From a virus (Duplodnaviria > Caudoviricetes), in the IMG/VR virus record IMGVR_UViG_3300022407_003733, positions 1-35,602 of that record: a stretch of 35,602 bases of DNA. One strand, 5' to 3'. Of the stretch, positions 10,880 to 33,359 are shown piece after piece. Under the pieces are notes generated by a model that saw only the letters and a program-made list of their open reading frames with translations, did no database searches and had not been told where the DNA came from. Position 1 is the stretch's first letter. Every line of letters starts with the position of its first letter. Position numbers and translations under genes: made by a program.

Positions 10880-11752
10880 ATGACCAAAACCAAGTCAACC
10901 AAACCAAAAACCGCCACCTCGACAGTTCAGGCATATCTGAAAAGTCACAGATTTGAGGGGCTCTCCATCCACCACATCCGCACGGTGCGCAAGCACATGG
11001 GCGTTTTCATGAAATACTTCAAGGAAGCGCCGCTGGAAGAAGTCACCCCAGAAGAAGTGCTCTGCTCCATACCCAAAAACTGGGGGCAGACCTCGAAGGC
11101 CAACTATATTCGAGCGGTCAAGACTCTCGCTAACTGGGCGCGGGATAATGACTACCTACCCTACGACCGCCGCACATTTGCCGAGCGTATCAGGAAGCCG
11201 AAGGAGGTTCCGTTGGAGCCCGAGTTCTTCACGACTGAAGAAATGCGCCGCCTACTGACTGTGGCAGGTATGCTGGTTGGGGGAGAAGAAGAGTTCCTGA
11301 TGTCCCTAATTATTCTTGGGGGCTTCGCCGGACTACGCTCCAGCGAGATCGGACGTTTGAGGTGGGTAGACATCGACCTCCCTCACAAAGCCGTGAGGCT
11401 GACGCCGAAGATCACAAAGACGTCGTCTCGGCGCATTGCACTGCTTCCCGACAACGGGGCTGCGTGGCTGGAACACGTCAAGGATAAGTCGGGATTTGTC
11501 GTTCCCCAACACCTTATCCCAAATTTGAACCGCTACATCGGCACACTCGCCAAAGAAGCTGGTGTGGAGTGGAAGAACAACGCCCTCCGCCACTCATACG
11601 TCACCTATGCCATGGCACAGGAGCGTGATGCGTGGAAAGTAGCCGAGCAAGTGGGCAACTCACCCCGTGTTTTGCAAGCCCACTACAAAGGGCTTGTGCT
11701 CCTCCCAGACGCAGTTGAGTGGTTTGGTATCACCCCTGACAACACCCTATGA
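10880..11752 (+). CDS. int: Tyrosine recombinase/integrase
   Basis: AGLRSSEI (R), TKT (K), NALRHSY, VGNS and HYKG (catalytic Y), with a SAM-like core-binding region. ATG 10880 is preferred. Confidence 0.9.
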   Translation: MTKTKSTKPKTATSTVQAYLKSHRFEGLSIHHIRTVRKHMGVFMKYFKEAPLEEVTPEEVLCSIPKNWGQTSKANYIRAVKTLANWARDNDYLPYDRRTFAERIRKPKEVPLEPEFFTTEEMRRLLTVAGMLVGGEEEFLMSLIILGGFAGLRSSEIGRLRWVDIDLPHKAVRLTPKITKTSSRRIALLPDNGAAWLEHVKDKSGFVVPQHLIPNLNRYIGTLAKEAGVEWKNNALRHSYVTYAMAQERDAWKVAEQVGNSPRVLQAHYKGLVLLPDAVEWFGITPDNTL

Positions 11753-22739: not shown

Positions 22740-23110
22740 ACAGGTGGGGGTAAATCCTGAGGACTTAAAACGCTGAGGCTGAGAGAACTATGACGAATTT
22801 GGTGGGAGATGTAGGGGTAAAAAAAGGGGGTATTTCTCTCCCCTACCTCTGTAAATCGTTGAACCTCAGTGAGTTACGTCAGTTTGGTAGGGGTGTAGGA
22901 GATAATTGGAATCAAATATAAAACTCCCGGGAAACAATAAAACAACACAGGGGCATGCACATACCCCCTATATTATACTCTATTATTAAAGAAGTATAGT
23001 GAACCCCTACATCTCCTACCAGCACCCATTCTACCAGCCTGCAATAAGGCTTGGAGTTGTAGGTGGGGGATGAAAAAAGGGGTGTTTTCTACCCCTACAC
23101 CCCTACTGAA
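22740..23110. other. Non-coding region with GTAGG(GG) iterated motifs and an AT-rich core, possible replication origin
   Basis: Inverted pairs at 22805-22818/23003-23016 (14 bp) and 22887-22899/23094-23106 (13 bp) surround an AT-rich stretch at about 22900-23000. Confidence 0.45.
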
Positions 23111-23113
23111 ATA

Positions 23114-23170
23114 GGGGTTGGGTTGGGATTTGGGTTGGGATTTGGGTTGCTGGGGGTTTGGGTTGGGGGG
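23114..23170 (+). repeat. G-tract repeat (TTGGGTTGGGAT)x2.7 plus further G runs
   Basis: Read directly: at least nine runs of three or more G with short T/A loops. Confidence 0.85.
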
Positions 23171-23184
23171 TTGGAGAAGCCTTC

Positions 23185-23212
23185 TTGCACCCTCCTCCCT
23201 CCCACGCATAGT
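23185..23212 (+). promoter_or_regulatory. Sigma70-like promoter for cysC, probably leaderless
   Basis: TTGCAC-N16-CATAGT, then 5 nt to ATG 23218. Confidence 0.45.
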
Positions 23213-23217
23213 CCTTC

Positions 23218-23796
23218 ATGCCCTCCAACACCGCCCGCCACGCTCGGGAACTTCTACTCGGACAACAAAGCCTAGTTGTCTGGCTCTATGGATTGTCAGG
23301 GGCTGGTAAGTCTACTCTTGCCTCCCTGCTCATTGAAGACCTGCACTCCTCAGGGGTCCTGACGGCTCCTCTTGATGGTGACGTCTTGAGGACTGGCCTG
23401 ACTCGTGGTCTTGGGTTCTCCCTCGACGACCGGACCGAGAACCTCCGCCGTGCTGCTGAAGCCGCCTCCTTGATTGCTGATACCGGGGCGGTCGTGGTCT
23501 GCAGTTTCATCACCCCCCTCCGCGATCACCGCCGCATGGTCCGCGATATTGTTGGGGCTGACAGATTCCTTGACGTCTATGTCCGCTGCCCTTTCGAAGT
23601 CTGCGCCTCCCGAGATGTGAAGGGGCTCTATCGCCACTCTCCCCCCGACTTCACTGGCCGGGACTCCCTCTTTGAGGAGCCCCTCGAAGTTCCCTCCCTG
23701 ATCATCGACACCAACTTGGTCCCGATTGATGTTGCCTCTCTGGCTTTGCTCTCTGCAACCCTGTCGCGGGGCACTGTTCACCTGAGTAGCCCCTGA
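23218..23796 (+). CDS. cysC: Adenylyl-sulfate (APS) kinase
   Basis: WLYGLSGAGKSTLA, LDGDVLR.GL...LGFS..DR.EN.RR, SFITP and RDVKGLY...FTG.D..FEEP. Confidence 0.95.
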   Translation: MPSNTARHARELLLGQQSLVVWLYGLSGAGKSTLASLLIEDLHSSGVLTAPLDGDVLRTGLTRGLGFSLDDRTENLRRAAEAASLIADTGAVVVCSFITPLRDHRRMVRDIVGADRFLDVYVRCPFEVCASRDVKGLYRHSPPDFTGRDSLFEEPLEVPSLIIDTNLVPIDVASLALLSATLSRGTVHLSSP

Positions 23797-24156
23797 GATT
23801 TTGGCCAAAATTCTGCGAGCCCCTAACCGATAGATTCACCGGCTCACGCGGCCCCCACACTACCCACCCGTGGGGGTGTCCACCGCGCACATCGTTGAGA
23901 ATCAACGACATACGCCGTGGCAGACTGAGGCTCTGGTAGCCTACTTCTCAGGTCACTTTTGGAAATCTTACTCTGTAAAGTGCTGGGACTAAACGATTTA
24001 GCCCTTAATGCAACAAAGTTGCACTATGCGCACGCCTCGCGTGGAACATGAGGAACATTCTGTTCCCCTGACCTGCGACGTCAACCCTTGACGCCTCGCG
24101 CGCTGCAATCTCTTCGAGATTGGAACCTGAGGTTCTAATCCCTCATCCCCTCATCC

Positions 24157-24196
24157 CCTTAGAACCTGATGTTCTAAGCCATACTACGAAGTAGAA
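24157..24196 (+). repeat. 40-bp perfect direct repeat, copy 1
   Basis: CCTTAGAACCTGATGTTCTAAGCCATACTACGAAGTAGAA, identical to 24870-24909. Confidence 0.95.
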
Positions 24197-24205
24197 GGTC
24201 ACAAA

Positions 24206-24230
24206 ACCCTTTGCTTCGGAAGGTTATGTT
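24206..24230 (+). promoter_or_regulatory. Early-promoter-like motif B, copy 1
   Basis: ACCCTTTGCTTCG is shared with 25422 and 27387, and is followed by TATGTT. Confidence 0.4.
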
Positions 24231-24270
24231 GTCGGCAATGAAGCTGACACAACCCAAACCAAACACGAAA

Positions 24271-24792
24271 ATGAAAAACACATCCGCCACCTCCGCCACC
24301 TCCGCCACCACCGACACCACCGCCACCATCGAAGATGGTAACAAGCACCTCGTGGCCTTCGGCAAGGCTGCTGAAGCCTATGGCAAAGCCACAGGGTCTT
24401 TCAAGTCGAAAACCGTCCAGACGGTTCTCGCACTCCGCACCGAGGGCTACGATGACAAAGTCATCACCGCCGCACTCCGTGCCATCGTCGAAAAATTCGG
24501 CGTCTCCCGTCAACACCTCAACCGTGTGCTCACTGCACCTGCCGCCGAAGGCGGCGCTGGCATGGAGGCAGAGAGAAAACACGAGAAATCCGGTGCCAAG
24601 TCCGTGAAGTCTGAACTCGGTGCCGTCGCCGCCAAAGGCGGCGTGAGCGTCAAGATCGCCGACCCTGTGAGCCTCTTCGCCGCTTTGCTCGTCGAATTCG
24701 AAGGTAAACACGCGAAGATCATGGTGCTGGCGGAGAAGCTCAACGAGCTCGCCTCGCAGGGCATGGAGAAAGCAGCTAAAGCTGCTAAGTAA
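24271..24792 (+). CDS. Basic Ala/Lys-rich protein with a helix-turn-helix-like motif
   Basis: LRAIVEKFGVSRQHLNRVL fits an HTH pattern. ATG follows an A/C-rich leader and the gene has its own terminator. Confidence 0.65.
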   Translation: MKNTSATSATSATTDTTATIEDGNKHLVAFGKAAEAYGKATGSFKSKTVQTVLALRTEGYDDKVITAALRAIVEKFGVSRQHLNRVLTAPAAEGGAGMEAERKHEKSGAKSVKSELGAVAAKGGVSVKIADPVSLFAALLVEFEGKHAKIMVLAEKLNELASQGMEKAAKAAK

Positions 24793-24814
24793 GCGCGGCG
24801 CAACGCCACCCACG

Positions 24815-24843
24815 GGGCATCTCTTCGGAGATGCCCTTTTTTT
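24815..24843 (+). terminator. Intrinsic terminator with cUUCGg loop
   Basis: GGGCATCTC-TTCG-GAGATGCCC followed by T7. Confidence 0.92.
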
Positions 24844-24869
24844 GTGCCCTGATCTCAAGACAGGGTGAG

Positions 24870-24909
24870 CCTTAGAACCTGATGTTCTAAGCCATACTAC
24901 GAAGTAGAA
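24870..24909 (+). repeat. 40-bp perfect direct repeat, copy 2
   Basis: Identical to 24157-24196. Confidence 0.95.
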
Positions 24910-24916
24910 CCCCGCA

Positions 24917-24958
24917 ACCCACCCACCTATGACACCCACCCACCCACCTATGACACCC
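24917..24958 (+). repeat. 21-bp perfect tandem duplication containing the start codon
   Basis: (ACCCACCCACCTATGACACCC)x2. Confidence 0.9.
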
Positions 24959-25381
24959 GCCAATCCCCCGCCCACCGTGCGTTGCTCCTGTGGAGCCGAA
25001 ACCATCCTCGACCATTGCCCCTTCTGTGGGTCTCAGTCGCTCTCCCCCAGCCGTTGCCGCCCCATGAATGCCACTGCCGCAGCGGCTTCAACCGTCGCCG
25101 ACCTCGCCCCCCGCGCATGGGAACTGCTCACGAACCGCGGCTATGCCAGCCGCGCGGCCCGCCGCATCATTCAACGCCGCCTGCGTGCGGCAGGTTACAG
25201 GTTCTACATCGCCTTGCCCGACGAGGGCCCGGCGCGATGGGGCATCCTGTCCCCCGGCGCGGGAATTCCCCGGCCTGAGGACGAGTTCTACTACGTTGGG
25301 GTGAGCCTCAACCACTGCGCCCATCAGATGGGCAACGACAACGCCGCCATCGGCTGGAAAGACTTCTGGAACTGGGACTGA
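24929..25381 (+). CDS. Hypothetical protein with N-terminal Zn-ribbon (CxC...CxxC)
   Basis: The stop codon abuts palindrome copy 4. The start is uncertain (24929, 24950 or a later ATG). Confidence 0.55.
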   Translation: MTPTHPPMTPANPPPTVRCSCGAETILDHCPFCGSQSLSPSRCRPMNATAAAASTVADLAPRAWELLTNRGYASRAARRIIQRRLRAAGYRFYIALPDEGPARWGILSPGAGIPRPEDEFYYVGVSLNHCAHQMGNDNAAIGWKDFWNWD

Positions 25382-25419
25382 GCCTTGGAACCTATGTTCT
25401 AAGCTCCTCCCGCGCTGCG

Positions 25420-25447
25420 TTGACCCTTTGCTTCGCAGTAGTATTTC
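25420..25447 (+). promoter_or_regulatory. Early-promoter-like motif B, copy 2
   Basis: TTGACC-N16-TATTTC. Bases 25422-25443 are identical to 27387-27408. Confidence 0.5.
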
Positions 25448-25491
25448 GATGGATGAACCATCACCCCGACAACCCCACCAACAGCACCCCC

Positions 25492-25803
25492 ATGCAAACG
25501 ACCGCCCACTACACCGCCGGACCGAAGGTCAACATCCTGACCATCGTCCGCGATGAACCCCGCAGAATCATCGCCAGCCTCGTCGTCAATGACGAGGAAG
25601 AAGCCCGTGAGATCGCCGCTGAGGTCGGCTCGAAGTTCTCGACCGACCCTCGCGCAACCTCCCCCTCGCCCGAAGCCATCGCAGCATGGCGTCAACTCCG
25701 CAAAGGTGCCCGCCGCAGGTCATACCCGACCCGCATCACCGACAACCGCGCGGCATACCGCCGCAAACAACTGGGGCTCCCGCCCCTGCAGCAGACGCAT
25801 TGA
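25492..25803 (+). CDS. Hypothetical protein
   Basis: ATG after a C/A-rich leader (alternative ATG 25453). The stop abuts palindrome copy 5. Confidence 0.6.
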   Translation: MQTTAHYTAGPKVNILTIVRDEPRRIIASLVVNDEEEAREIAAEVGSKFSTDPRATSPSPEAIAAWRQLRKGARRRSYPTRITDNRAAYRRKQLGLPPLQQTH

Positions 25804-25853
25804 CCCTTAGAACCTCAGGTTCCAACCCCACAACCCAGCAACCCAACAACCGC

Positions 25854-26045
25854 ATGACTATCGAACGTATCTCCGACCTCACCGGTCGTCGCCACACCCG
25901 TGAAGTTGACGTCACCGAAGCCCAGCTCAAATGCTGGGCCGAGGGCACCCTCATCCAAAACGTCATGCCCCACCTGTCGGCTGACGACAGGGAGTTCATC
26001 ATGTCAGGCATTACCCCCGAGGAGTGGGAAACCCTCACCGACTAA
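25854..26045 (+). CDS. Small conserved phage hypothetical protein
   Basis: LIQNVMPHLSADDREFIMSGITPEEW resembles a recurrent small phage protein family (from memory). ATG 25854 follows an A/C leader. Confidence 0.75.
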   Translation: MTIERISDLTGRRHTREVDVTEAQLKCWAEGTLIQNVMPHLSADDREFIMSGITPEEWETLTD

Positions 26046-26151
26046 CCCAATCCCTTAGAACCTCGCCCGAGACTTCATGGAATTTGCCCATGAGTAACCC
26101 CTTTCCCCGCGTATAGCGGGGCGAAACCCAAACCCAAACCCAAACGACAAC

Positions 26152-26682
26152 ATGAAACCGAAATCCAAATCCAAATCCAAATCCAAGTCCATCTCCACGC
26201 TCCCCCTCGTCCTCCCTACGCCGCCTTCAGGAGCGGCGGCCATCAAGGCCGTGACCCCACCCATCAAGCAGGCTGACCTGATCGAAGCTCTCGTCGCTCG
26301 ATCTCGCCAGAAGTACCTCCAAGACAATAAGGAGGCTGACGAGAAAGAGAAAGAGGCGGAGGCCATATACGCGTCCGCCCTCCTCGATTTGTATCGGGAG
26401 ACCCCGGCTCATTTCACCGGGTCCTCCAACCCCCACTACGGGATCGGGCAGCTCGTCTTGCAGCTCGTCTCTGCTCCCCCTGCCATCAAGAAGCTCCACT
26501 CCGCGTGCCGCATCACCCGCCCCCCTTACTGGGACGAGAAGCGCGTCCGCGCTGAGATCAAGGAGGGGCTCAATGGGCAGGCGTCCCGCGTCGCTGCCAT
26601 GCTGGGGGACACCCACGTCGTCGGCCTCCTCGACGATACCCTTGACGCCTTGAAAAACGCTGCCGAGAAACTCGCTGCTTAG
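26152..26682 (+). CDS. Hypothetical protein
   Basis: 176 aa with a KS-repeat N-terminus. The TAG stop lies inside palindrome copy 6. Confidence 0.7.
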   Translation: MKPKSKSKSKSKSISTLPLVLPTPPSGAAAIKAVTPPIKQADLIEALVARSRQKYLQDNKEADEKEKEAEAIYASALLDLYRETPAHFTGSSNPHYGIGQLVLQLVSAPPAIKKLHSACRITRPPYWDEKRVRAEIKEGLNGQASRVAAMLGDTHVVGLLDDTLDALKNAAEKLAA

Positions 26683-26723
26683 AACCTGAGGTTCTAAGCC
26701 CTGAAACCCAAACGACAACGATA

Positions 26724-27371
26724 ATGAAACCAAATCCATCCATCAAACCACTCAGCCCGTCCCAAGCGACGGAGCACCCACGTTACTCCGCTGCCGTCAC
26801 CCAAGCGGCGGCCCACTTCCTGTCCACCGTGCCTGAAAAGCTCGACGGGCGGAAGCTCCTTGCCGCCCTCTGCTTCGGGTCGAAGGCGGACATCGCAAAG
26901 GTGGGCATCCGCCTCTGGGACAGCATTCCCGATGCCCGTGATGCCTCCCGCCGTATCGACATCCTCGCCCGCCACATGCTGGCGGTGGAGGAACACAACG
27001 CCACGGAGGCCGCCGCTTGCGACTGCCCCTTGGAGTTTGCCATCAAGGCGTCCGGCCTCTCGATGCCTCCGAAGGAGGTGCTCGACGCCATCCGCGAGAT
27101 AGCTGCCATCAAAGGCAACAGCAAAGTGGAGGTCGCCTTTGACGATGTGCTCCTCGACGACTCGCTCGTGGATGACTCGCTCGTGGATGACTCGCTCGTG
27201 GATGACGACCACGGCCTCCCGATGGAGTGCTTCATCGCGCTCCAGAAAGCCTTGCCCGGAATCCGCGTGGTGCAGGGCAAGGTGGTCTCGTGCCGGAAGA
27301 TTCCGGTGGTCATAGCACAGGAGATTCTCGACCTGACCCTCGCCGAAGCTAAGAGAGTCGGTCTCGTGTGA
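26724..27371 (+). CDS. Hypothetical protein with DDSLV tandem repeat
   Basis: 215 aa, ATG 25 nt after palindrome copy 6. Confidence 0.7.
   Translation: MKPNPSIKPLSPSQATEHPRYSAAVTQAAAHFLSTVPEKLDGRKLLAALCFGSKADIAKVGIRLWDSIPDARDASRRIDILARHMLAVEEHNATEAAACDCPLEFAIKASGLSMPPKEVLDAIREIAAIKGNSKVEVAFDDVLLDDSLVDDSLVDDSLVDDDHGLPMECFIALQKALPGIRVVQGKVVSCRKIPVVIAQEILDLTLAEAKRVGLV
27156..27206 (+). repeat. 15-bp in-frame tandem repeat, 3.4 copies
   Basis: GAYGACTCGCTCGTG x3, encoding DDSLV. Confidence 0.9.
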
Positions 27372-27386
27372 TGCCCTCACACGTTG

Positions 27387-27410
27387 GACCCTTTGCTTCG
27401 CAGTAGTAAT
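27387..27410 (+). promoter_or_regulatory. Early-promoter-like motif B, copy 3
   Basis: GACCCTTTGCTTCGCAGTAGTAAT, directly upstream of the structured intergenic segment. Confidence 0.5.
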
Positions 27411-27560
27411 GGTGACGGCGGTGAATGACCTGCCGCCGTCACCAACCCACCAATTTCCCTCGTGTTGGGAATAGGGTGGGTCGGGGTGTGGATGACCTGT
27501 TATGTCTCCGCGTCCCGACCCTAACACCCTGATTCCCCCACACCCCAAAGCCTTTCGGCT
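27411..27560 (+). ncRNA. Candidate structured non-coding RNA or leader
   Basis: An 11-bp perfect hairpin (27411-27443), a long interrupted stem with G.U pairs (about 27462-27543) and a small AGCC-TTTC-GGCT hairpin, all in a 266-bp intergenic gap. Confidence 0.5.
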
Positions 27561-27637
27561 CGGTGCTTAGAACCTGAGGTTCCAAGCCCTGCCGATACCC
27601 AAAAACAAAAACCCAACACCCAAACGACAACAACAAC

Positions 27638-29230
27638 ATGGCTACCATCCCACAACTCGACCCGTCCAAAGCAACCCGCGATGAAATGCGGACTTGGATT
27701 TCGGCCTCCGCCCGCACCATCGCCACTCACCAGAGCGGCTCGCCCACCATCACCTCGCTCCGTGAGGTGATGAAGTCCGTCGGCTTCGCCTCCCTCTCCG
27801 CCGTCATCGCGGAGGGCACCATGGAATCCCTCCGCACCTGCGTCACCAAGATGCACGATGTGGCCAAGGGGCACGGCCTGCTGGACTCGGCGACCGCCGT
27901 CTCCCACACACCGCCCCCGCCTCCGCCTCCGACGCCGCTGCCTGCTCCGCCGGAGCGCATCACCCTCATCCTCGACGAGGTTGACGGCCTTGACGAGGCT
28001 TCCCGCCTCGCTGACGTGGCTGCCGACCTCGCTCGTCGTGCTGCTGATGCCGCCGCTGCCGCTCGTGCCGCCGCTGCCGCTCCCCGCCCCACTGCTGGTA
28101 TGTCGGCCGCCGATCTCGAACGTCTCGACAAGGTTGAGGTGATGGCTTCCGCAACCCTTGACGCCCTGCGCGGCGAGGCTTCCAAGATCACCGACCTTCA
28201 GGAGAAGTTCGCCCCGCTCACCGCCGTGCTCGATGCCATCAAGGCATCCTCGGGCGGCCCACCCACCCTGCCACCCGCTGCCATCGCCTCCATCAAGGCT
28301 GCGATCTCGGGCGACAGGCTCTTGACGGAGGTGATGCCGTTCTTCACGCCGGGCATCCAGCAGGGCAACCAGATTCCCTGCGTTGCCAGCCCGCCCAGCT
28401 TCGGCAAGACGTTCATGTCGGACGAAATCAGTCGTCTCTACGACGGCAGCTTTTTCCACCCGTTCAAGGACTCCCTTGACGAGGTTGACAGCCTCGTGGG
28501 CACCCTGATGCCCCGCTCGGACGGCACCTTCGCCGTCATCGACGGCCCGCTGGTCAGCGCCGCCCGCCTTGCCAGCACCGGCGTCAACACCCTCTTTGTG
28601 GGGGATGAAATCTTCAACGCCAGTAAGAAGACGCTGGAGTGGATGCAGTCCTTCCTCTCGCCGCGTCTCGTGGAGTTCGTCAACCCTGACGACGGCACCA
28701 CCGGTCTCCGGCGCTGCTTCGTCATCCAGACCAAGCACAGCTTGGAGGACGGCACGTTCGAGGTCATCAAGGCACCAGAGGAGTGCTTGCACTTCCTCTT
28801 CCTCGGCAACCTGCGCACCAACCCACCGGAGGCTCTCATGTCCCGCTGCCGCCTGATGCGCTTCGACTACGACCCAGTGTGGGCTGCTGAGACGGCGCTC
28901 CAACGCCTTGAGGGCTACTCCGGCGGCTTGTTCTCCGGCAAGGACGCTCAGGATTGGGCAAAGCGTTGGGCTCAGGCCATGACCTCCTCCCGCGAGGCTT
29001 ACTCCAAGATGGAGGTCAGCCGCCCGCTGTGCTTCCGCTTCCTCATCGGGGCTGTCACCCACGTTGTCCGCCAGCCGGGTGCCTCACTCAGCATGCTCTC
29101 CGAGTATGTGGCCAAGTGGGCTCCCCATCAGATCGCCGTGCAGAATGCGGCGACCCAAGACACGGACGCTACCTCCTCCGCCCTCGTCAAGAAGATCGTC
29201 GGCTCCTGCTTCCCCGGCTCCGTCAAGTAA
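27638..29230 (+). CDS. AAA+ ATPase, MoxR/CobS/dynein-related type, with a long N-terminal extension
   Basis: Walker A SPPSFGKT, LVG, DGPL, Walker B FVGDEIFN, sensor-1 FLGN and arginine finger EALMSRC. Confidence 0.8.
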   Translation: MATIPQLDPSKATRDEMRTWISASARTIATHQSGSPTITSLREVMKSVGFASLSAVIAEGTMESLRTCVTKMHDVAKGHGLLDSATAVSHTPPPPPPPTPLPAPPERITLILDEVDGLDEASRLADVAADLARRAADAAAAARAAAAAPRPTAGMSAADLERLDKVEVMASATLDALRGEASKITDLQEKFAPLTAVLDAIKASSGGPPTLPPAAIASIKAAISGDRLLTEVMPFFTPGIQQGNQIPCVASPPSFGKTFMSDEISRLYDGSFFHPFKDSLDEVDSLVGTLMPRSDGTFAVIDGPLVSAARLASTGVNTLFVGDEIFNASKKTLEWMQSFLSPRLVEFVNPDDGTTGLRRCFVIQTKHSLEDGTFEVIKAPEECLHFLFLGNLRTNPPEALMSRCRLMRFDYDPVWAAETALQRLEGYSGGLFSGKDAQDWAKRWAQAMTSSREAYSKMEVSRPLCFRFLIGAVTHVVRQPGASLSMLSEYVAKWAPHQIAVQNAATQDTDATSSALVKKIVGSCFPGSVK

Positions 29231-29305
29231 ACCCCCTTCGGGGGAGGGCTTGGAACTTCAGGTTCTAAGCCCTCCTCCCCTCAACCCCTTAATCCCTGCA
29301 ACAGT

Positions 29306-30412
29306 ATGACACCAACACCAACACCACCCACACAGATCACCACCCCTGAGTCCGACCGTGCTTACCGCTTCTCACGACGGCGTGAAACCCGCAAGCCTGA
29401 CGGCACTGTCCGTCAACGTGCTGGCTGCCTCGCCCACCTGTCCGTAAAGACGTCCTCCCCCGTTACCTACATGCTGAACCCCAAGTGCGCAGCGCGGACC
29501 GCCTCATGGCAGTGGAAAGCTGTAGGTGTAGGCTCACGCCACATCATTGAGGTGAACCCCGACTGTGCGACCGTGTTCTTCGCCGAGGATAAAAACAATT
29601 CCAAGCGTCGCATCGAGCTCGTCAAGGCGGTCATCGCTCACGAGACCTGTCACGGGCTCTACACCTCCCGAGCTCCCGATCTCCCTCGCACTTGCCATAG
29701 CGTCAAGGTTCCGTTCCGGTTGCTCAACCTCTTCGAGGACTGCCGCATCGAACACAAGTATGTGAAGGATCGCGGGAAGGAGTTCAAGTTCCGCTGGCGG
29801 GCATTCGATGACAACATGGTCAAGGCTGGTGGAGACATCAGCTCCCCGATGACGTGGATATACACCATGAAGACTCGTGAGCCCATCTTGTTCAAGGCGG
29901 CGTCGTCCGTCATGGCAGGATATAAGTGGACGGGTGAAGACAGTGTGTCCTTGCCCTCTACCTCCTATGCCCACCCGCTCAAGAAGGTAGAGGGGCGGTT
30001 GGTCTACGTCCCCTCCCTCATCAACATCTTTTACAGAGCGATCATTGACGCCGCTACCACTGAGGATGTGGTCCCCATCGCCCGCTACTGGACGGACATC
30101 TTCGGCAGGGAGTCAGCCTCCGACCTCCCTCCCATCATCATTGACACGGTGCCATCAGATATTGGGGGTGTTGACGAACCCGCTGGAGCTGATGAGGGGG
30201 AGTCGTCCGACGCCGATCGAACGACTCGCGAGGTTGACCACCGAGCTCTCGAAGAACTCGGTGGCGGCGACCCCACTGACAAGCGGGCGATGCTGACCCC
30301 CGACAAGGTGATGCACCACAACACCGACAAGTTTGTGAAGCAGCCTCCACGCGCTGGCTTCATCCCCCTCCTCCGCTACTGCGTTGGATTTGAAGGCGAC
30401 ACTTCCGTCTAA
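29306..30412 (+). CDS. HExxH metallopeptidase-like protein (CobT N-terminal-like)
   Basis: IAHETCHGLYT...LLNLFEDCRIE, with an acidic C-terminal linker. It lies between the AAA+ and vWA genes. Confidence 0.75.
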   Translation: MTPTPTPPTQITTPESDRAYRFSRRRETRKPDGTVRQRAGCLAHLSVKTSSPVTYMLNPKCAARTASWQWKAVGVGSRHIIEVNPDCATVFFAEDKNNSKRRIELVKAVIAHETCHGLYTSRAPDLPRTCHSVKVPFRLLNLFEDCRIEHKYVKDRGKEFKFRWRAFDDNMVKAGGDISSPMTWIYTMKTREPILFKAASSVMAGYKWTGEDSVSLPSTSYAHPLKKVEGRLVYVPSLINIFYRAIIDAATTEDVVPIARYWTDIFGRESASDLPPIIIDTVPSDIGGVDEPAGADEGESSDADRTTREVDHRALEELGGGDPTDKRAMLTPDKVMHHNTDKFVKQPPRAGFIPLLRYCVGFEGDTSV

Positions 30413-30433
30413 CACCCCACCCACTACAACGAT

Positions 30434-31177
30434 ATGCCTAAACTCACTCCAATACTCTCTTCCTCATACTGGAAACCCACTCTCGCCCAGCGCGTCACCA
30501 ACGGATTCGCTACCGTCATGGAGCAAGCTGAGCCTGCCTCCGCTGATCCCGCACCCTCCGGCTCACGCCTCAACCACCGCGCCATCTTCACCCACAACTA
30601 CGGCTCCGCATTCCTGCAACCGTCAGCCGTTGACGGGACTCGCCGCATCCTCCTCATCGTGGACTTTAGCGGCTCCATGTCAGGCATGTGGTGCAGCCAA
30701 GGCGGCTCCGAGTTTGTCTGGGGGCTGATGCAGTTTGCCCGACAAGGCGGGTGCCACCTCAAGGTCGTGCTCACTGGGCATGATAAAGGTCCCGCTGAGC
30801 TTCCCGTTGACACCCCCTTCGAGGTGTTTGCCAGCCTAGCCCCCACGTTCGCGCAGGAAGCATTCGCTGCCACCATGCTCCGTCCACTCGTCGGTGAGAT
30901 GATGGAGGAGTCGGACATCACCATCTGCTGGACGGACGGGCAGTTGACTGACGGCTACGTTGACGCCGTCCGCTGGCGTGAGAAGAACATCAACGTCATC
31001 GGTGCTTGCATCGGGAAGGACTCTGATCGAGCCCACCACCCCACCGGAGGCATCGTCCCACTGCGGGAGGCGATGCAAGGATACTTCCACGCTGCCTTCC
31101 TCGACACCGACGCGGCTCGCATCTCGACGCAGATGGCAACATGGATTGCTTCCTGCCCACTGCGTGACCTCCAGTAA
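30434..31177 (+). CDS. von Willebrand factor A (vWA) domain protein
   Basis: MIDAS LLIVDFSGSM and CWTDG, preceded by GSRLNHRA (typical G.l...r lead-in). Confidence 0.85.
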   Translation: MPKLTPILSSSYWKPTLAQRVTNGFATVMEQAEPASADPAPSGSRLNHRAIFTHNYGSAFLQPSAVDGTRRILLIVDFSGSMSGMWCSQGGSEFVWGLMQFARQGGCHLKVVLTGHDKGPAELPVDTPFEVFASLAPTFAQEAFAATMLRPLVGEMMEESDITICWTDGQLTDGYVDAVRWREKNINVIGACIGKDSDRAHHPTGGIVPLREAMQGYFHAAFLDTDAARISTQMATWIASCPLRDLQ

Positions 31178-31269
31178 CAACCCTTCGGAGGGCTTAGAAC
31201 TTCAGGTTCCAAGCCCTCCGCCCCACCCACCCCGTGAAAGTCTTCATCATACCCGCTTCACTCTGCATC

Positions 31270-31563
31270 ATGACCACCAAACAGATACCCCTCGACCGAG
31301 CTAAGGTTACGTTGATCGACAAGAGCAATCCGCTATCCCATATCGCCTGCCTCCTGTGGCAGGACAAGACTCACCACATTGACGACTTCGACCTCAGCCC
31401 ACTGGGTAATGTTGTCGCCGTGCAGGATGACCTGCTCGCCTTCCCGCCTCGCGGATGGGTGACCCTTGATGGTAACTGTCGCCGCCGCACAAGCAGCTAC
31501 GTCAAACTCCTCCCCGCCAGACAGCGCCGTAAACGTGACACCCTGCCAAATGAAATCGCCTGA
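31270..31563 (+). CDS. Hypothetical protein
   Basis: Co-oriented with the block. ATG 31270 is preferred. Confidence 0.5.
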   Translation: MTTKQIPLDRAKVTLIDKSNPLSHIACLLWQDKTHHIDDFDLSPLGNVVAVQDDLLAFPPRGWVTLDGNCRRRTSSYVKLLPARQRRKRDTLPNEIA

Positions 31564-31900
31564 ACAACTCTACTATTGTGAAGACGAGCCCGGCACCAAA
31601 TACCGGATACTCAAACCCGGTGAACGCACTGGTGAGCACGCCCTCTGCTGGCATAAGTCAGCCACCATCAAGGGAGGTTTGCTTCCAGCAAAGATACCTG
31701 CTTCGGCGGACATGGTCGTCCATGAGGATGATGGGAACCACTACTTCACCGTGTCCCATGTTCTCGTCCCACATGAAGCGGCCTCCCGCTTGCTCGACCT
31801 CTGGTTCGGCAAGTATCACACCACCTGCGAAGACGGCGAAGAGGCCGCCGCTTGGCAGCAACTCAAGGAAGTCCTCTACCCCACAACAGAACTCGAATAA
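31550..31900 (+). CDS. Hypothetical protein
   Basis: ATG 31550 overlaps the upstream gene end. Confidence 0.55.
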   Translation: MKSPEQLYYCEDEPGTKYRILKPGERTGEHALCWHKSATIKGGLLPAKIPASADMVVHEDDGNHYFTVSHVLVPHEAASRLLDLWFGKYHTTCEDGEEAAAWQQLKEVLYPTTELE

Positions 31901-31934
31901 TAACCAACAGCTAATCACCCCCACCACAACAACA

Positions 31935-32237
31935 ATGAAACGCATCCTCACCACCCCCGTCATCTCTGAACCCACCATCTTCGCCAAAGACCTTCCGGCG
32001 TGCCCCATCATTGGAGCCGTCAACCGTCAAGGTCTACAGGTAAAGGGCTTCATCCAACGAGTTGATCCCCGTGATGACCACTCCCATCATATCAACTGCT
32101 TCCCCAACATCACCAAAGGCAGTCGATATAACCCCAGCCTGTTCGGCGGCTCCCTCGCCCAAGCCCTCTCCCACCCCGATCTGGACTACTTCCTCTTTGA
32201 CACGGAGAAGGAACTTTTTGAATGGTTGGTCAAATAA
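31935..32237 (+). CDS. Hypothetical protein
   Basis: ATG 31935 after an ACAACAACA leader. Confidence 0.65.
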   Translation: MKRILTTPVISEPTIFAKDLPACPIIGAVNRQGLQVKGFIQRVDPRDDHSHHINCFPNITKGSRYNPSLFGGSLAQALSHPDLDYFLFDTEKELFEWLVK

Positions 32238-32301
32238 CCCATCACACGGGGGGCCGCGCATCCATAACCAACGCGGAACACACCTAACCAAAAACAAAAA
32301 T

Positions 32302-33201
32302 ATGAAAACCAAACTACACGCCTACCACTTCAACTGCGGAGACCTCTCCCAAAGTCAAGCCTACCTCAAGCTGCGTGATGAACGCATGAAGAGCGAGTCC
32401 CGCAGACACGACCGCATCAACTTCGTTCACACCGACACAAGCCCTAGCGGGTGCAGGTTCAGCCACCTGACCGAGCTCTCTTCTGAGGGAGCCACTACCA
32501 CCTACGAGGTTGACCTCGACCTCAAGCACCTGTTCGACGATCAGTGGAACACCAGCGATACTGAGGGGCACACCGGCTACCGAGTCTTCGACTGGGTGGA
32601 ATACTACTCCCCCCACAACAAGAGTAATATCTGGGGTCACTGGCTGGAGGTCACCGATGAAATGGTGGCGGCCCGAGACAACACCAATGTCTGCCGTTAT
32701 TGCGGGGCTCAGTATGGCACCTGTCACGAGGGCCACCTGACCGCACCCCGAGCTAACCCTAAGTTCTGCAAGAAGTGCCTCGGCTCCCCATACCTCAAGG
32801 AGAGTGAGCTCTGGATGTTGCGGCTGACCCCCGTGAGCCAAAAATATAGCCGCCCGCATGACGAGCTGTCGCAGGAAGACCTCGACTGGTTGAAGCCCCG
32901 CTACGTCGAAGCCCAGCTTCGCGGTAATGAGGAGCGCCGTGAGGAGCGGCTGAAGAAGCAGCGTGCTGACTTGGAGAAACAGCAGCAGCTTGACGACATG
33001 AAGTTTGACGGCATGACCCGCCTGCTCGGCGCAGACATCGAGTTGGATAACGTCATCTTCCACGACCACGTCCCTGTGTTCAAGTTCGGCTGGCGCAATG
33101 GGCTATCTCCTTCTGTGGTAGAGGCGATGCAGTTAAAGCTGCGCGAGATTGAGTTCCCCCATCCAACCGAGTTCGTAATCAGCGACGCCGAACGCCTATG
33201 A
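32302..33201 (+). CDS. Hypothetical protein with Zn-finger (CRYCG...FCKKC) and coiled coil
   Basis: ATG 32302 after an A-rich leader, 299 aa. Confidence 0.75.
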   Translation: MKTKLHAYHFNCGDLSQSQAYLKLRDERMKSESRRHDRINFVHTDTSPSGCRFSHLTELSSEGATTTYEVDLDLKHLFDDQWNTSDTEGHTGYRVFDWVEYYSPHNKSNIWGHWLEVTDEMVAARDNTNVCRYCGAQYGTCHEGHLTAPRANPKFCKKCLGSPYLKESELWMLRLTPVSQKYSRPHDELSQEDLDWLKPRYVEAQLRGNEERREERLKKQRADLEKQQQLDDMKFDGMTRLLGADIELDNVIFHDHVPVFKFGWRNGLSPSVVEAMQLKLREIEFPHPTEFVISDAERL

Positions 33202-33359
33202 AACTATACCGCTACCAAGTAAGATGGTCGCCCTACGCAACCGCGGTCCGGGCAAAAAATAAGAAAGAGGCAGACAGGGAAATCCGCCGCCAGTATCCTC
33301 ATGCGACGGGGAATTTCTTCACTATTTTCTAAGCCCTCCCCCTTAACCCAACAACAACT

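Follow-up and report, generated by a model that had tools for sequence, protein, structure and literature searches.

A palindromic repeat between the early genes of an uncultured freshwater phage: a probable double-stranded DNA site and a possible operator array

The window analyzed here is the whole stretch of 35,602 nucleotides of IMG/VR record IMGVR_UViG_3300022407_003733, a 35.6-kb tailed-phage fragment in which the minus strand carries the terminase and the late genes. The late block is followed by genes for a tyrosine recombinase, a resolvase, a helicase-nuclease, DNA polymerase A and a primase-like protein, and from about 24.1 kb by the early region, where copies of a short dyad, GCTTRGAAC-N5-GTTCYAAGC, stand between the genes. 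This repeat and the protein that may bind it are the subject of this report. The metagenomes holding window-like DNA are freshwater and lake samples. Named cellular homologues of the window recombinase are mostly from Verrucomicrobia, which points to this phylum as the likely host group. The search for a cultured relative was negative, with nothing matching the AAA protein and terminase matches below 30%, and the literature search returned nothing on this phage group or on the element.

The repeat and its placement between early genes are real. With up to three mismatches allowed, the pattern matches eight times in the window (copies 1 to 3 and 5 to 9 in Table 1), compared with a mean of 0.01 and a maximum of 1 in shuffled sequence. 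Against a profile built from these eight, the copies score 33 to 45 and the best site in positions 1 to 24000 scores 0.2, in agreement with the original prediction, which had seen no full copy there. The two half sites (26053 and 33327) and the bare core (24052) that it listed are also present. Its count of nine 23-bp copies holds for eight of them; the ninth (25383–25404) has a 4-nt core and is 22 bp long. The copy at 26677 is indeed perfect and contains a TAG stop codon, with a true symmetry of 11-1-11. The 11-7-11 geometry read from the flanks does not hold in general, as AGGG/CCCT flanks occur in a few copies only and the left flank is unconserved beyond 2 nt across 46 copies. That set first included contig L209, later dropped as bacterial, and the phage set comprises 45 copies in 7 records. 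The claim that copies sit just after stop codons applies to five of the seven window sites having an upstream early gene (at most 18 nt away); the other two lie 78 nt from the stop, past a terminator, and 194 nt from it, past a conserved hairpin. Start codons follow the window sites after 26 to 87 nt, mostly with the predicted A/C-rich leader in between. Across the window clade, 45 of 45 copies are in the early region, nearly all of them 20 to 100 nt ahead of a start codon, and the core is present in both orientations.

Among the 51 viral loci returned, dyad arrays were detected in four records, called here A (G001, 99.5% identical to the window), B (G003), C (G002) and D (G004), and further copies were located in two small metagenome contigs and in L342. 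Core gene order is conserved in the relatives, and so are the boundaries that carry sites: the two that flank the AAA gene, the one past the vWA-like gene and the one ahead of the DUF5983 gene. Two distant relatives, G005 and G010, are about 50% identical to the window in the AAA protein and 56–57% in the capsid. The AAA, HEXXH-containing and vWA-like genes form a triad (window 27638–31177) that is kept as far as these two and is absent from 10 more distant phages.

Variation in the arms suggests that the repeat most likely behaves as a double-stranded DNA site. At the variable arm position, the 45 phage copies read A..T (16), A..C (15), G..T (13) or G..C (1), with a Fisher p of 0.008 that overstates the case because the copies are not independent and orthologous ones share states. 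Since only one copy is G..C, at least one TTAGAA half is kept in 44 of 45, and A·C on the mRNA strand is about as frequent (15) as G·U (13). For a hairpin acting on one strand, A·C would be expected to disappear and G-C to spread; the opposite is seen, which argues for a site read in double-stranded DNA. An internal control is provided by the hairpin at 27462–27543, whose stem of about 31 bp varies among the window, B, C and D by G·U or compensatory pairs only (two compensatory changes), the exception being one of the four sequences, which has two gapped positions. This hairpin is a candidate structured RNA; Rfam returned two sub-threshold miRNA-like hairpin matches and none above threshold for it. 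The original prediction had noted G·U mismatches on either strand and had preferred a DNA site over a one-strand hairpin, and both points are supported here. The spacer between the TTRGAA arms is 7 nt in 41 copies, 6 nt in two and 8 nt in two.

The sequence of the site switches between lineages. B and C are 90–95% identical across long blocks, and the core is CCA..TGG in eight of nine B sites versus CCT..AGG in all nine C sites. In two orthologous B/C sites the left 14 nt are identical and the three central bases alone differ. The new core of B is built with four centers (ATT, AAT, ACGT and ACAT), a diversity that would fit selection for a new half site better than copying. Another genome-specific concerted change is seen in L342 (5060–5900), where three of four sites have a TAAAAC left-arm variant. 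The GCTTRGAAC-type word was not found in G005 or G010, which carry GTTGCA-N2..4-YGYAAC-type dyads, 19 and 14 copies versus 0.43 and 0.13 by chance, at matching boundaries that include the one directly past the AAA stop. These positions suggest the same kind of element. Three copies in each of the two genomes lie inside a giant late gene (4,200–4,450 aa) that is transcribed in the opposite direction. If the element is of the same kind, cassette excision is disfavored, as recombination between copies would remove late genes, and a signal acting in mRNA should not occur in both directions of transcription.

A candidate for the binding protein is encoded by the first early gene. In a tblastn comparison of B and C, shared genes were 77–99% identical and the first early gene 39%; the other low values (38% over 48 aa and 56% over 90 aa) came from open reading frames (ORFs) judged to be shadow or non-coding and were set aside. 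The B/C difference alters one helix, TPQYLNRIF versus xRQHLNRVL, and QHLNRVL is identical in all 31 close homologues of the first-gene product. The protein was modeled as all-helical with a mean pLDDT of 77, and its assignment as a helix-turn-helix (HTH) protein is tentative. Being flanked by sites and closed by its own terminator, the gene has the layout of an autoregulated regulator. Searches of PDB sequences and with Foldseek gave no match. An apparent match to the helix bundle of the RepB' primase (Z 8.0, root-mean-square deviation 2.7, 68 aligned residues) was discarded, as it was not reproduced with a better model (best Z 6.8). G005 encodes a like-sized protein in the same slot that has the same three top Atlas clusters as the window protein (0.87–0.88), which we regard as a lead only. 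No loci with divergent first-gene alleles were found beyond B. In B, the region round the gene (G003:59900–61519 and 1–260) is replaced by a module rich in short tandem repeats, one of which holds a half-site-like CTAGAAC, and a decayed site lies at 60038.

Taken together, we favor with modest confidence the explanation that the palindromes form an operator or roadblock array metering early transcription. The dyads on double-stranded DNA would be occupied by a dimer of a protein that the phage encodes, the best candidate being the predicted HTH product of the first early gene; bound between genes, this protein would shut down or meter transcription of the early region in the manner of an operator or roadblock. 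As a side effect, the repeats probably provide short stretches of homology at which small early genes are gained, lost or reordered, as with the promoter early stem-loop (PeSL) elements discussed below. From the sites, their positions, the strand-symmetric variation, the lineage-wide switches and the co-variation with the first gene in one pair, all of them observed, we infer binding by a protein, the identity of that protein and an effect on transcription. The multi-operator/roadblock model of the original prediction is thus the best fit, with the difference that these sites, unlike stoperators, are symmetric.

Several observations weigh against this explanation. The co-variation of site and first gene comes from a single genome pair (B/C), and the recombinase is left as a rival binder by the same contrast, given that the B enzyme is 67–69% identical to those of the window and D, versus 87% between the latter two, and that C's lies outside its contig. 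Several HTH Pfam models match the QHLNRVL stretch, all below cut-off; a fold search with the first-gene model gave no clear match; and the G005 first gene had no significant profile similarity to the window family. The sites are not phased with promoters. A second repeated motif, ACCCTTTGCTTC, is followed by a TA-rich hexamer and a hairpin, with a spacing that fits no promoter known to us; it is present in C, L235 and L342 and was not found in B, and no fixed distance separates it from the dyads. A promoter search gave four matches versus 2.8 in shuffles, with no sigma70 excess and none established. A rigid dimer would poorly tolerate the 6- and 8-nt spacers. The stems extend by 2.5 pairs on average versus 1.49 ± 0.15 upon flank shuffling (46 copies, including the later-dropped L209), and two D copies have both inner arms changed symmetrically, so that a hairpin or cruciform would also fit.

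Gene content between the sites varies in ways that bear on the proposed exchange. Of the five small window genes from the first gene to the AAA gene, one has a homologue over its full length in B, C or D and another is matched in its C-terminal part; downstream, the count is 9 of 12. The gene at 25453–25803 (116 aa) resembles in its C-terminal part a stand-alone gene of 58–69 aa in B, C and D, and is likely a fusion. Homology between B and C picks up again precisely at a site, and the order of two small genes is swapped. One of these has no upstream site in C and lies in a site-free stretch in D; therefore, exchange at the repeats is plausible and not obligatory. At 26053, where A has a full site, the window skips 71 nt from the palindrome center to 5 nt of microhomology within the small ORF that follows, and this deletion allele is carried by runs X1, X2 and X3. 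The comparison for gain, loss or reordering at the palindromes gave a mixed picture: variability is high and some homology edges fall at sites, but others fall inside genes or in site-free DNA. The suggested check for inversions or excised forms gave no early-gene inversion in the window or in A, B, C or D, even though the core is present in either orientation, and no site-to-site joint in the contigs of five runs, contigs being prone to drop rare variants. The only inversion seen (23026–23986, in A) is at a 7-bp CCAGCAC unrelated to the repeat, and it may be an artefact because it appears in one record only. The inverted segment holds an adenylylsulphate kinase gene (23218–23796, Pfam E 8e-46) with no counterpart in B, C or D.

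Could the sites instead be targets of the short, arm-less tyrosine recombinase, which would excise, reinsert or convert early cassettes or circularize the genome via a terminal repeat? The catalytic residues of this enzyme (R, K, R and Y) do not vary across 22 homologues, and the 290-aa form occurs in array-bearing records, with longer frames in two array-less relatives. Core sites of the lox, dif and FRT type have 6–8-bp spacers, a range into which the TTRGAA-arm spacers fall. The concerted change of cores inside one genome, the diverged B enzyme, the B/C homology that starts at a site, the swapped genes and the deletion beginning at a site center would all agree with such activity. However, conservation ends 7–9 bp from the spacer rather than spanning arms of 11–13 bp, and the spacers are near-palindromic and differ within one genome rather than being matching and asymmetric. 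The missing inversions, the lack of joints in contigs, the unrelated 7-mer at the sole inversion, the mobile small gene in site-free surroundings and the equivalent dyads that G005 and G010 have within their giant late gene also speak against it, and overall we consider it unlikely. The integron-like cassette array of the original prediction fails on the features of attC and IntI. A site directly after the stop, AAC...GTT triplets and a tyrosine recombinase in the genome are reminiscent of attC and IntI. However, attC sites span about 57–141 bp with RYYYAAC...GTTRRRY boxes and form a bulged bottom-strand hairpin; here the sites are 22–24 bp (TTRGAAC...GTTCYAA), with neither those boxes nor extrahelical bases, and the recombinase, 12 kb away, is not an IntI (TIGR02249, 25 bits versus a cut-off of 265). 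A bolder version is rather improbable, in which a shortened integrase became a Cre/Xer-like enzyme of a Verrucomicrobia-type phage clade, acting on a dyad array in a long terminal repeat at lineage-specific, non-integron sites, rewriting cores in concert and shuffling cassettes. No dispersed array was detected in ten more distant near-complete phages, two with a longer related integrase and eight without; this comparison does not separate the candidate binders, because the test missed one of six positive genomes and those phages have no early module.

A phage protein might also bind the sites for a non-transcriptional purpose, for example coating, protecting, anchoring or metering the entry of the first-injected DNA, a kind of role also left open for the Cluster O repeats described below. 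The lack of phasing with promoters and the genome-wide dyads of G005 and G010 are in line with this, as is the start of the array where contig depth rises; we give it little credence given the early-region placement in the window clade, nearly always ahead of start codons, and contig depth is not copy number. In three runs the depth is about 1.5–2.2-fold higher over about 15 kb of the early region, from window 24.17 kb (24167) to about G001:13000. This weak measure hints that the array may open a direct terminal repeat some 15 kb long, which would begin close to the first palindromes. A non-coding block that precedes the early region (window 23773–23941) is 74–84% conserved in B, C, D and L235 and is a possible terminus, packaging or origin signal. 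A further proposal, that the repeats are RNA hairpins (processing, stabilizing or ribosome-stalling) or extruded DNA hairpins between genes, draws on folding energies of −4.4 to −13.2 kcal/mol for each copy, adjacency to stop codons, variable spacers with some extended stems, and the same 21-mer in hairpins of repetitive extragenic palindrome (REP)-like repeats of unrelated bacteria. It appears quite unlikely in view of the arm-position states described above, of arms fixed in sequence rather than covarying, and of the copies that G005 and G010 carry in a late gene transcribed the other way. The transcript-processing model of the original prediction comes out weakened; the one RNA run contributed few contigs across the region. 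The Y1 transposase that accompanies REPs (REP-associated tyrosine transposase, RAYT; PF01797) was absent from two of two near-complete phages and present in two of three look-alike bacterial genomes. In the look-alike loci (L080–L208), the 21-mer is an abundant REP-like hairpin of Oscillospiraceae metagenome-assembled genomes (MAGs), and a G..C form of it occurs in MAGs of Saccharibacteria (13 Y1-transposase matches in one of them); since flanks differ and centers vary, we treat them as convergent. A virion RNA polymerase using N4-type hairpin promoters found no support: two giant proteins gave no Pfam or PHROG RNA polymerase match, and a scan of five giant proteins for short polymerase motifs gave two stray matches, none conserved, although a diverged enzyme might escape these searches. 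The giant late protein (3,897–4,747 aa; G001:15523–29766, L336, and G003:14275–25968, L337) has conserved ends and a variable middle, and that of G001 has a weak ART-PolyVal match. Recruitment of a LexA-like host regulator is very unlikely. The Firmicutes LexA box, GAAC-N4-GTTC, resembles GAAC..GTTC, and one copy lies in the bacterial-looking contig L209; against this, no Verrucomicrobia record occurs among the 129 genome loci listed, of about 160 estimated, and the motif differs from clade to clade as well as in near-identical phages.

Among described systems, the array is of the kind represented by the 17-bp dyads of Cluster O mycobacteriophages, which are predicted to bind a dimeric phage protein and whose function is given as unknown (PMC4351075). 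Both comprise many dyad copies with a short variable center in both orientations, and the Cluster O dyads, intergenic and intragenic, are likewise mostly away from promoters (PMC4351075). Few or no rearrangements were found at the Cluster O repeats (PMC4351075). The window array differs in sequence and host group, its sites hug early-gene boundaries, gene content varies between them, and a candidate binder co-varies with the site. In the Cluster A stoperators, too, many sites are spread across early genes; they serve one phage protein, and their motif diverges with the repressor between lineages, as one genome pair suggests here. Stoperators are asymmetric, oriented with transcription, bound by a monomer and found in temperate phages, unlike the symmetric sites here in both orientations (PMC6550527, PMC9283540). 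T4-type PeSLs resemble the array as repeated intergenic elements that bound small variable early genes and act as exchange points, a role that is plausible for the array, but are composite promoter/stem-loop/Shine-Dalgarno units (PMC2839356, PMC4122927). Here, a bare 21–23-bp dyad has no fixed promoter link. The element does not show the full defining features of the integron, stoperator, PeSL or REP/RAYT types.

Table 1. Features of the window that bear on the repeat, in window coordinates.
Feature	Position	Strand	Remark
Tyrosine recombinase	10880–11752	+	290 aa; invariant R-K-R-Y; Asn at both His positions; rival candidate binder
Bare GGAAC-N5-GTTCC core	24052–24066	.	doubtful family member
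Dyad copy 1	24118–24140	.	pattern match
Dyad copy 2	24157–24179	.	40 nt identical with copy 3, right flank included
Second repeated motif ACCCTTTGCTTC	24206–24217; also 25423 and 27388	+	promoter-like
First early gene	24271–24792	+	start codon uncertain; predicted all-helical; candidate HTH binder; sites on both sides
Intrinsic-terminator-like hairpin and T run	24814–24847	+	closes the first early gene
Dyad copy 3	24870–24892	.	past the terminator of the first early gene
Dyad copy 4	25383–25404	.	one base shorter, 4-nt core
Dyad copy 5	25805–25827	.	pattern match
Left half of dyad	26053–26064	.	scar of the 71-nt deletion relative to G001
Dyad copy 6	26677–26699	.	perfect 11-1-11; TAG stop of the upstream gene inside
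Conserved non-coding long hairpin	27462–27543	+	just upstream of copy 7; internal control with RNA-like variation
Dyad copy 7	27565–27587	.	ahead of the AAA gene; position kept in B, C and D
Dyad copy 8	29248–29270	.	past the AAA gene; different dyad at the same boundary in G005 and G010
Dyad copy 9	31192–31214	.	past the vWA-like gene
Decayed right half site	33325–33336	.	full sites at this boundary in B and D

Dyad arrays of the Cluster O kind were already known; what this clade supplies is natural allele pairs in which a protein and the whole set of sites have changed together from one near-identical genome to the other, along with a sister clade (G005 and G010) that has another word in the same slots. 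The binder is therefore directly testable without culturing the phage. If it proves to be the product of the first early gene, these phages would hold a new family of small regulators with switchable specificity; if it is the recombinase, they would hold a new diversity-generating system.

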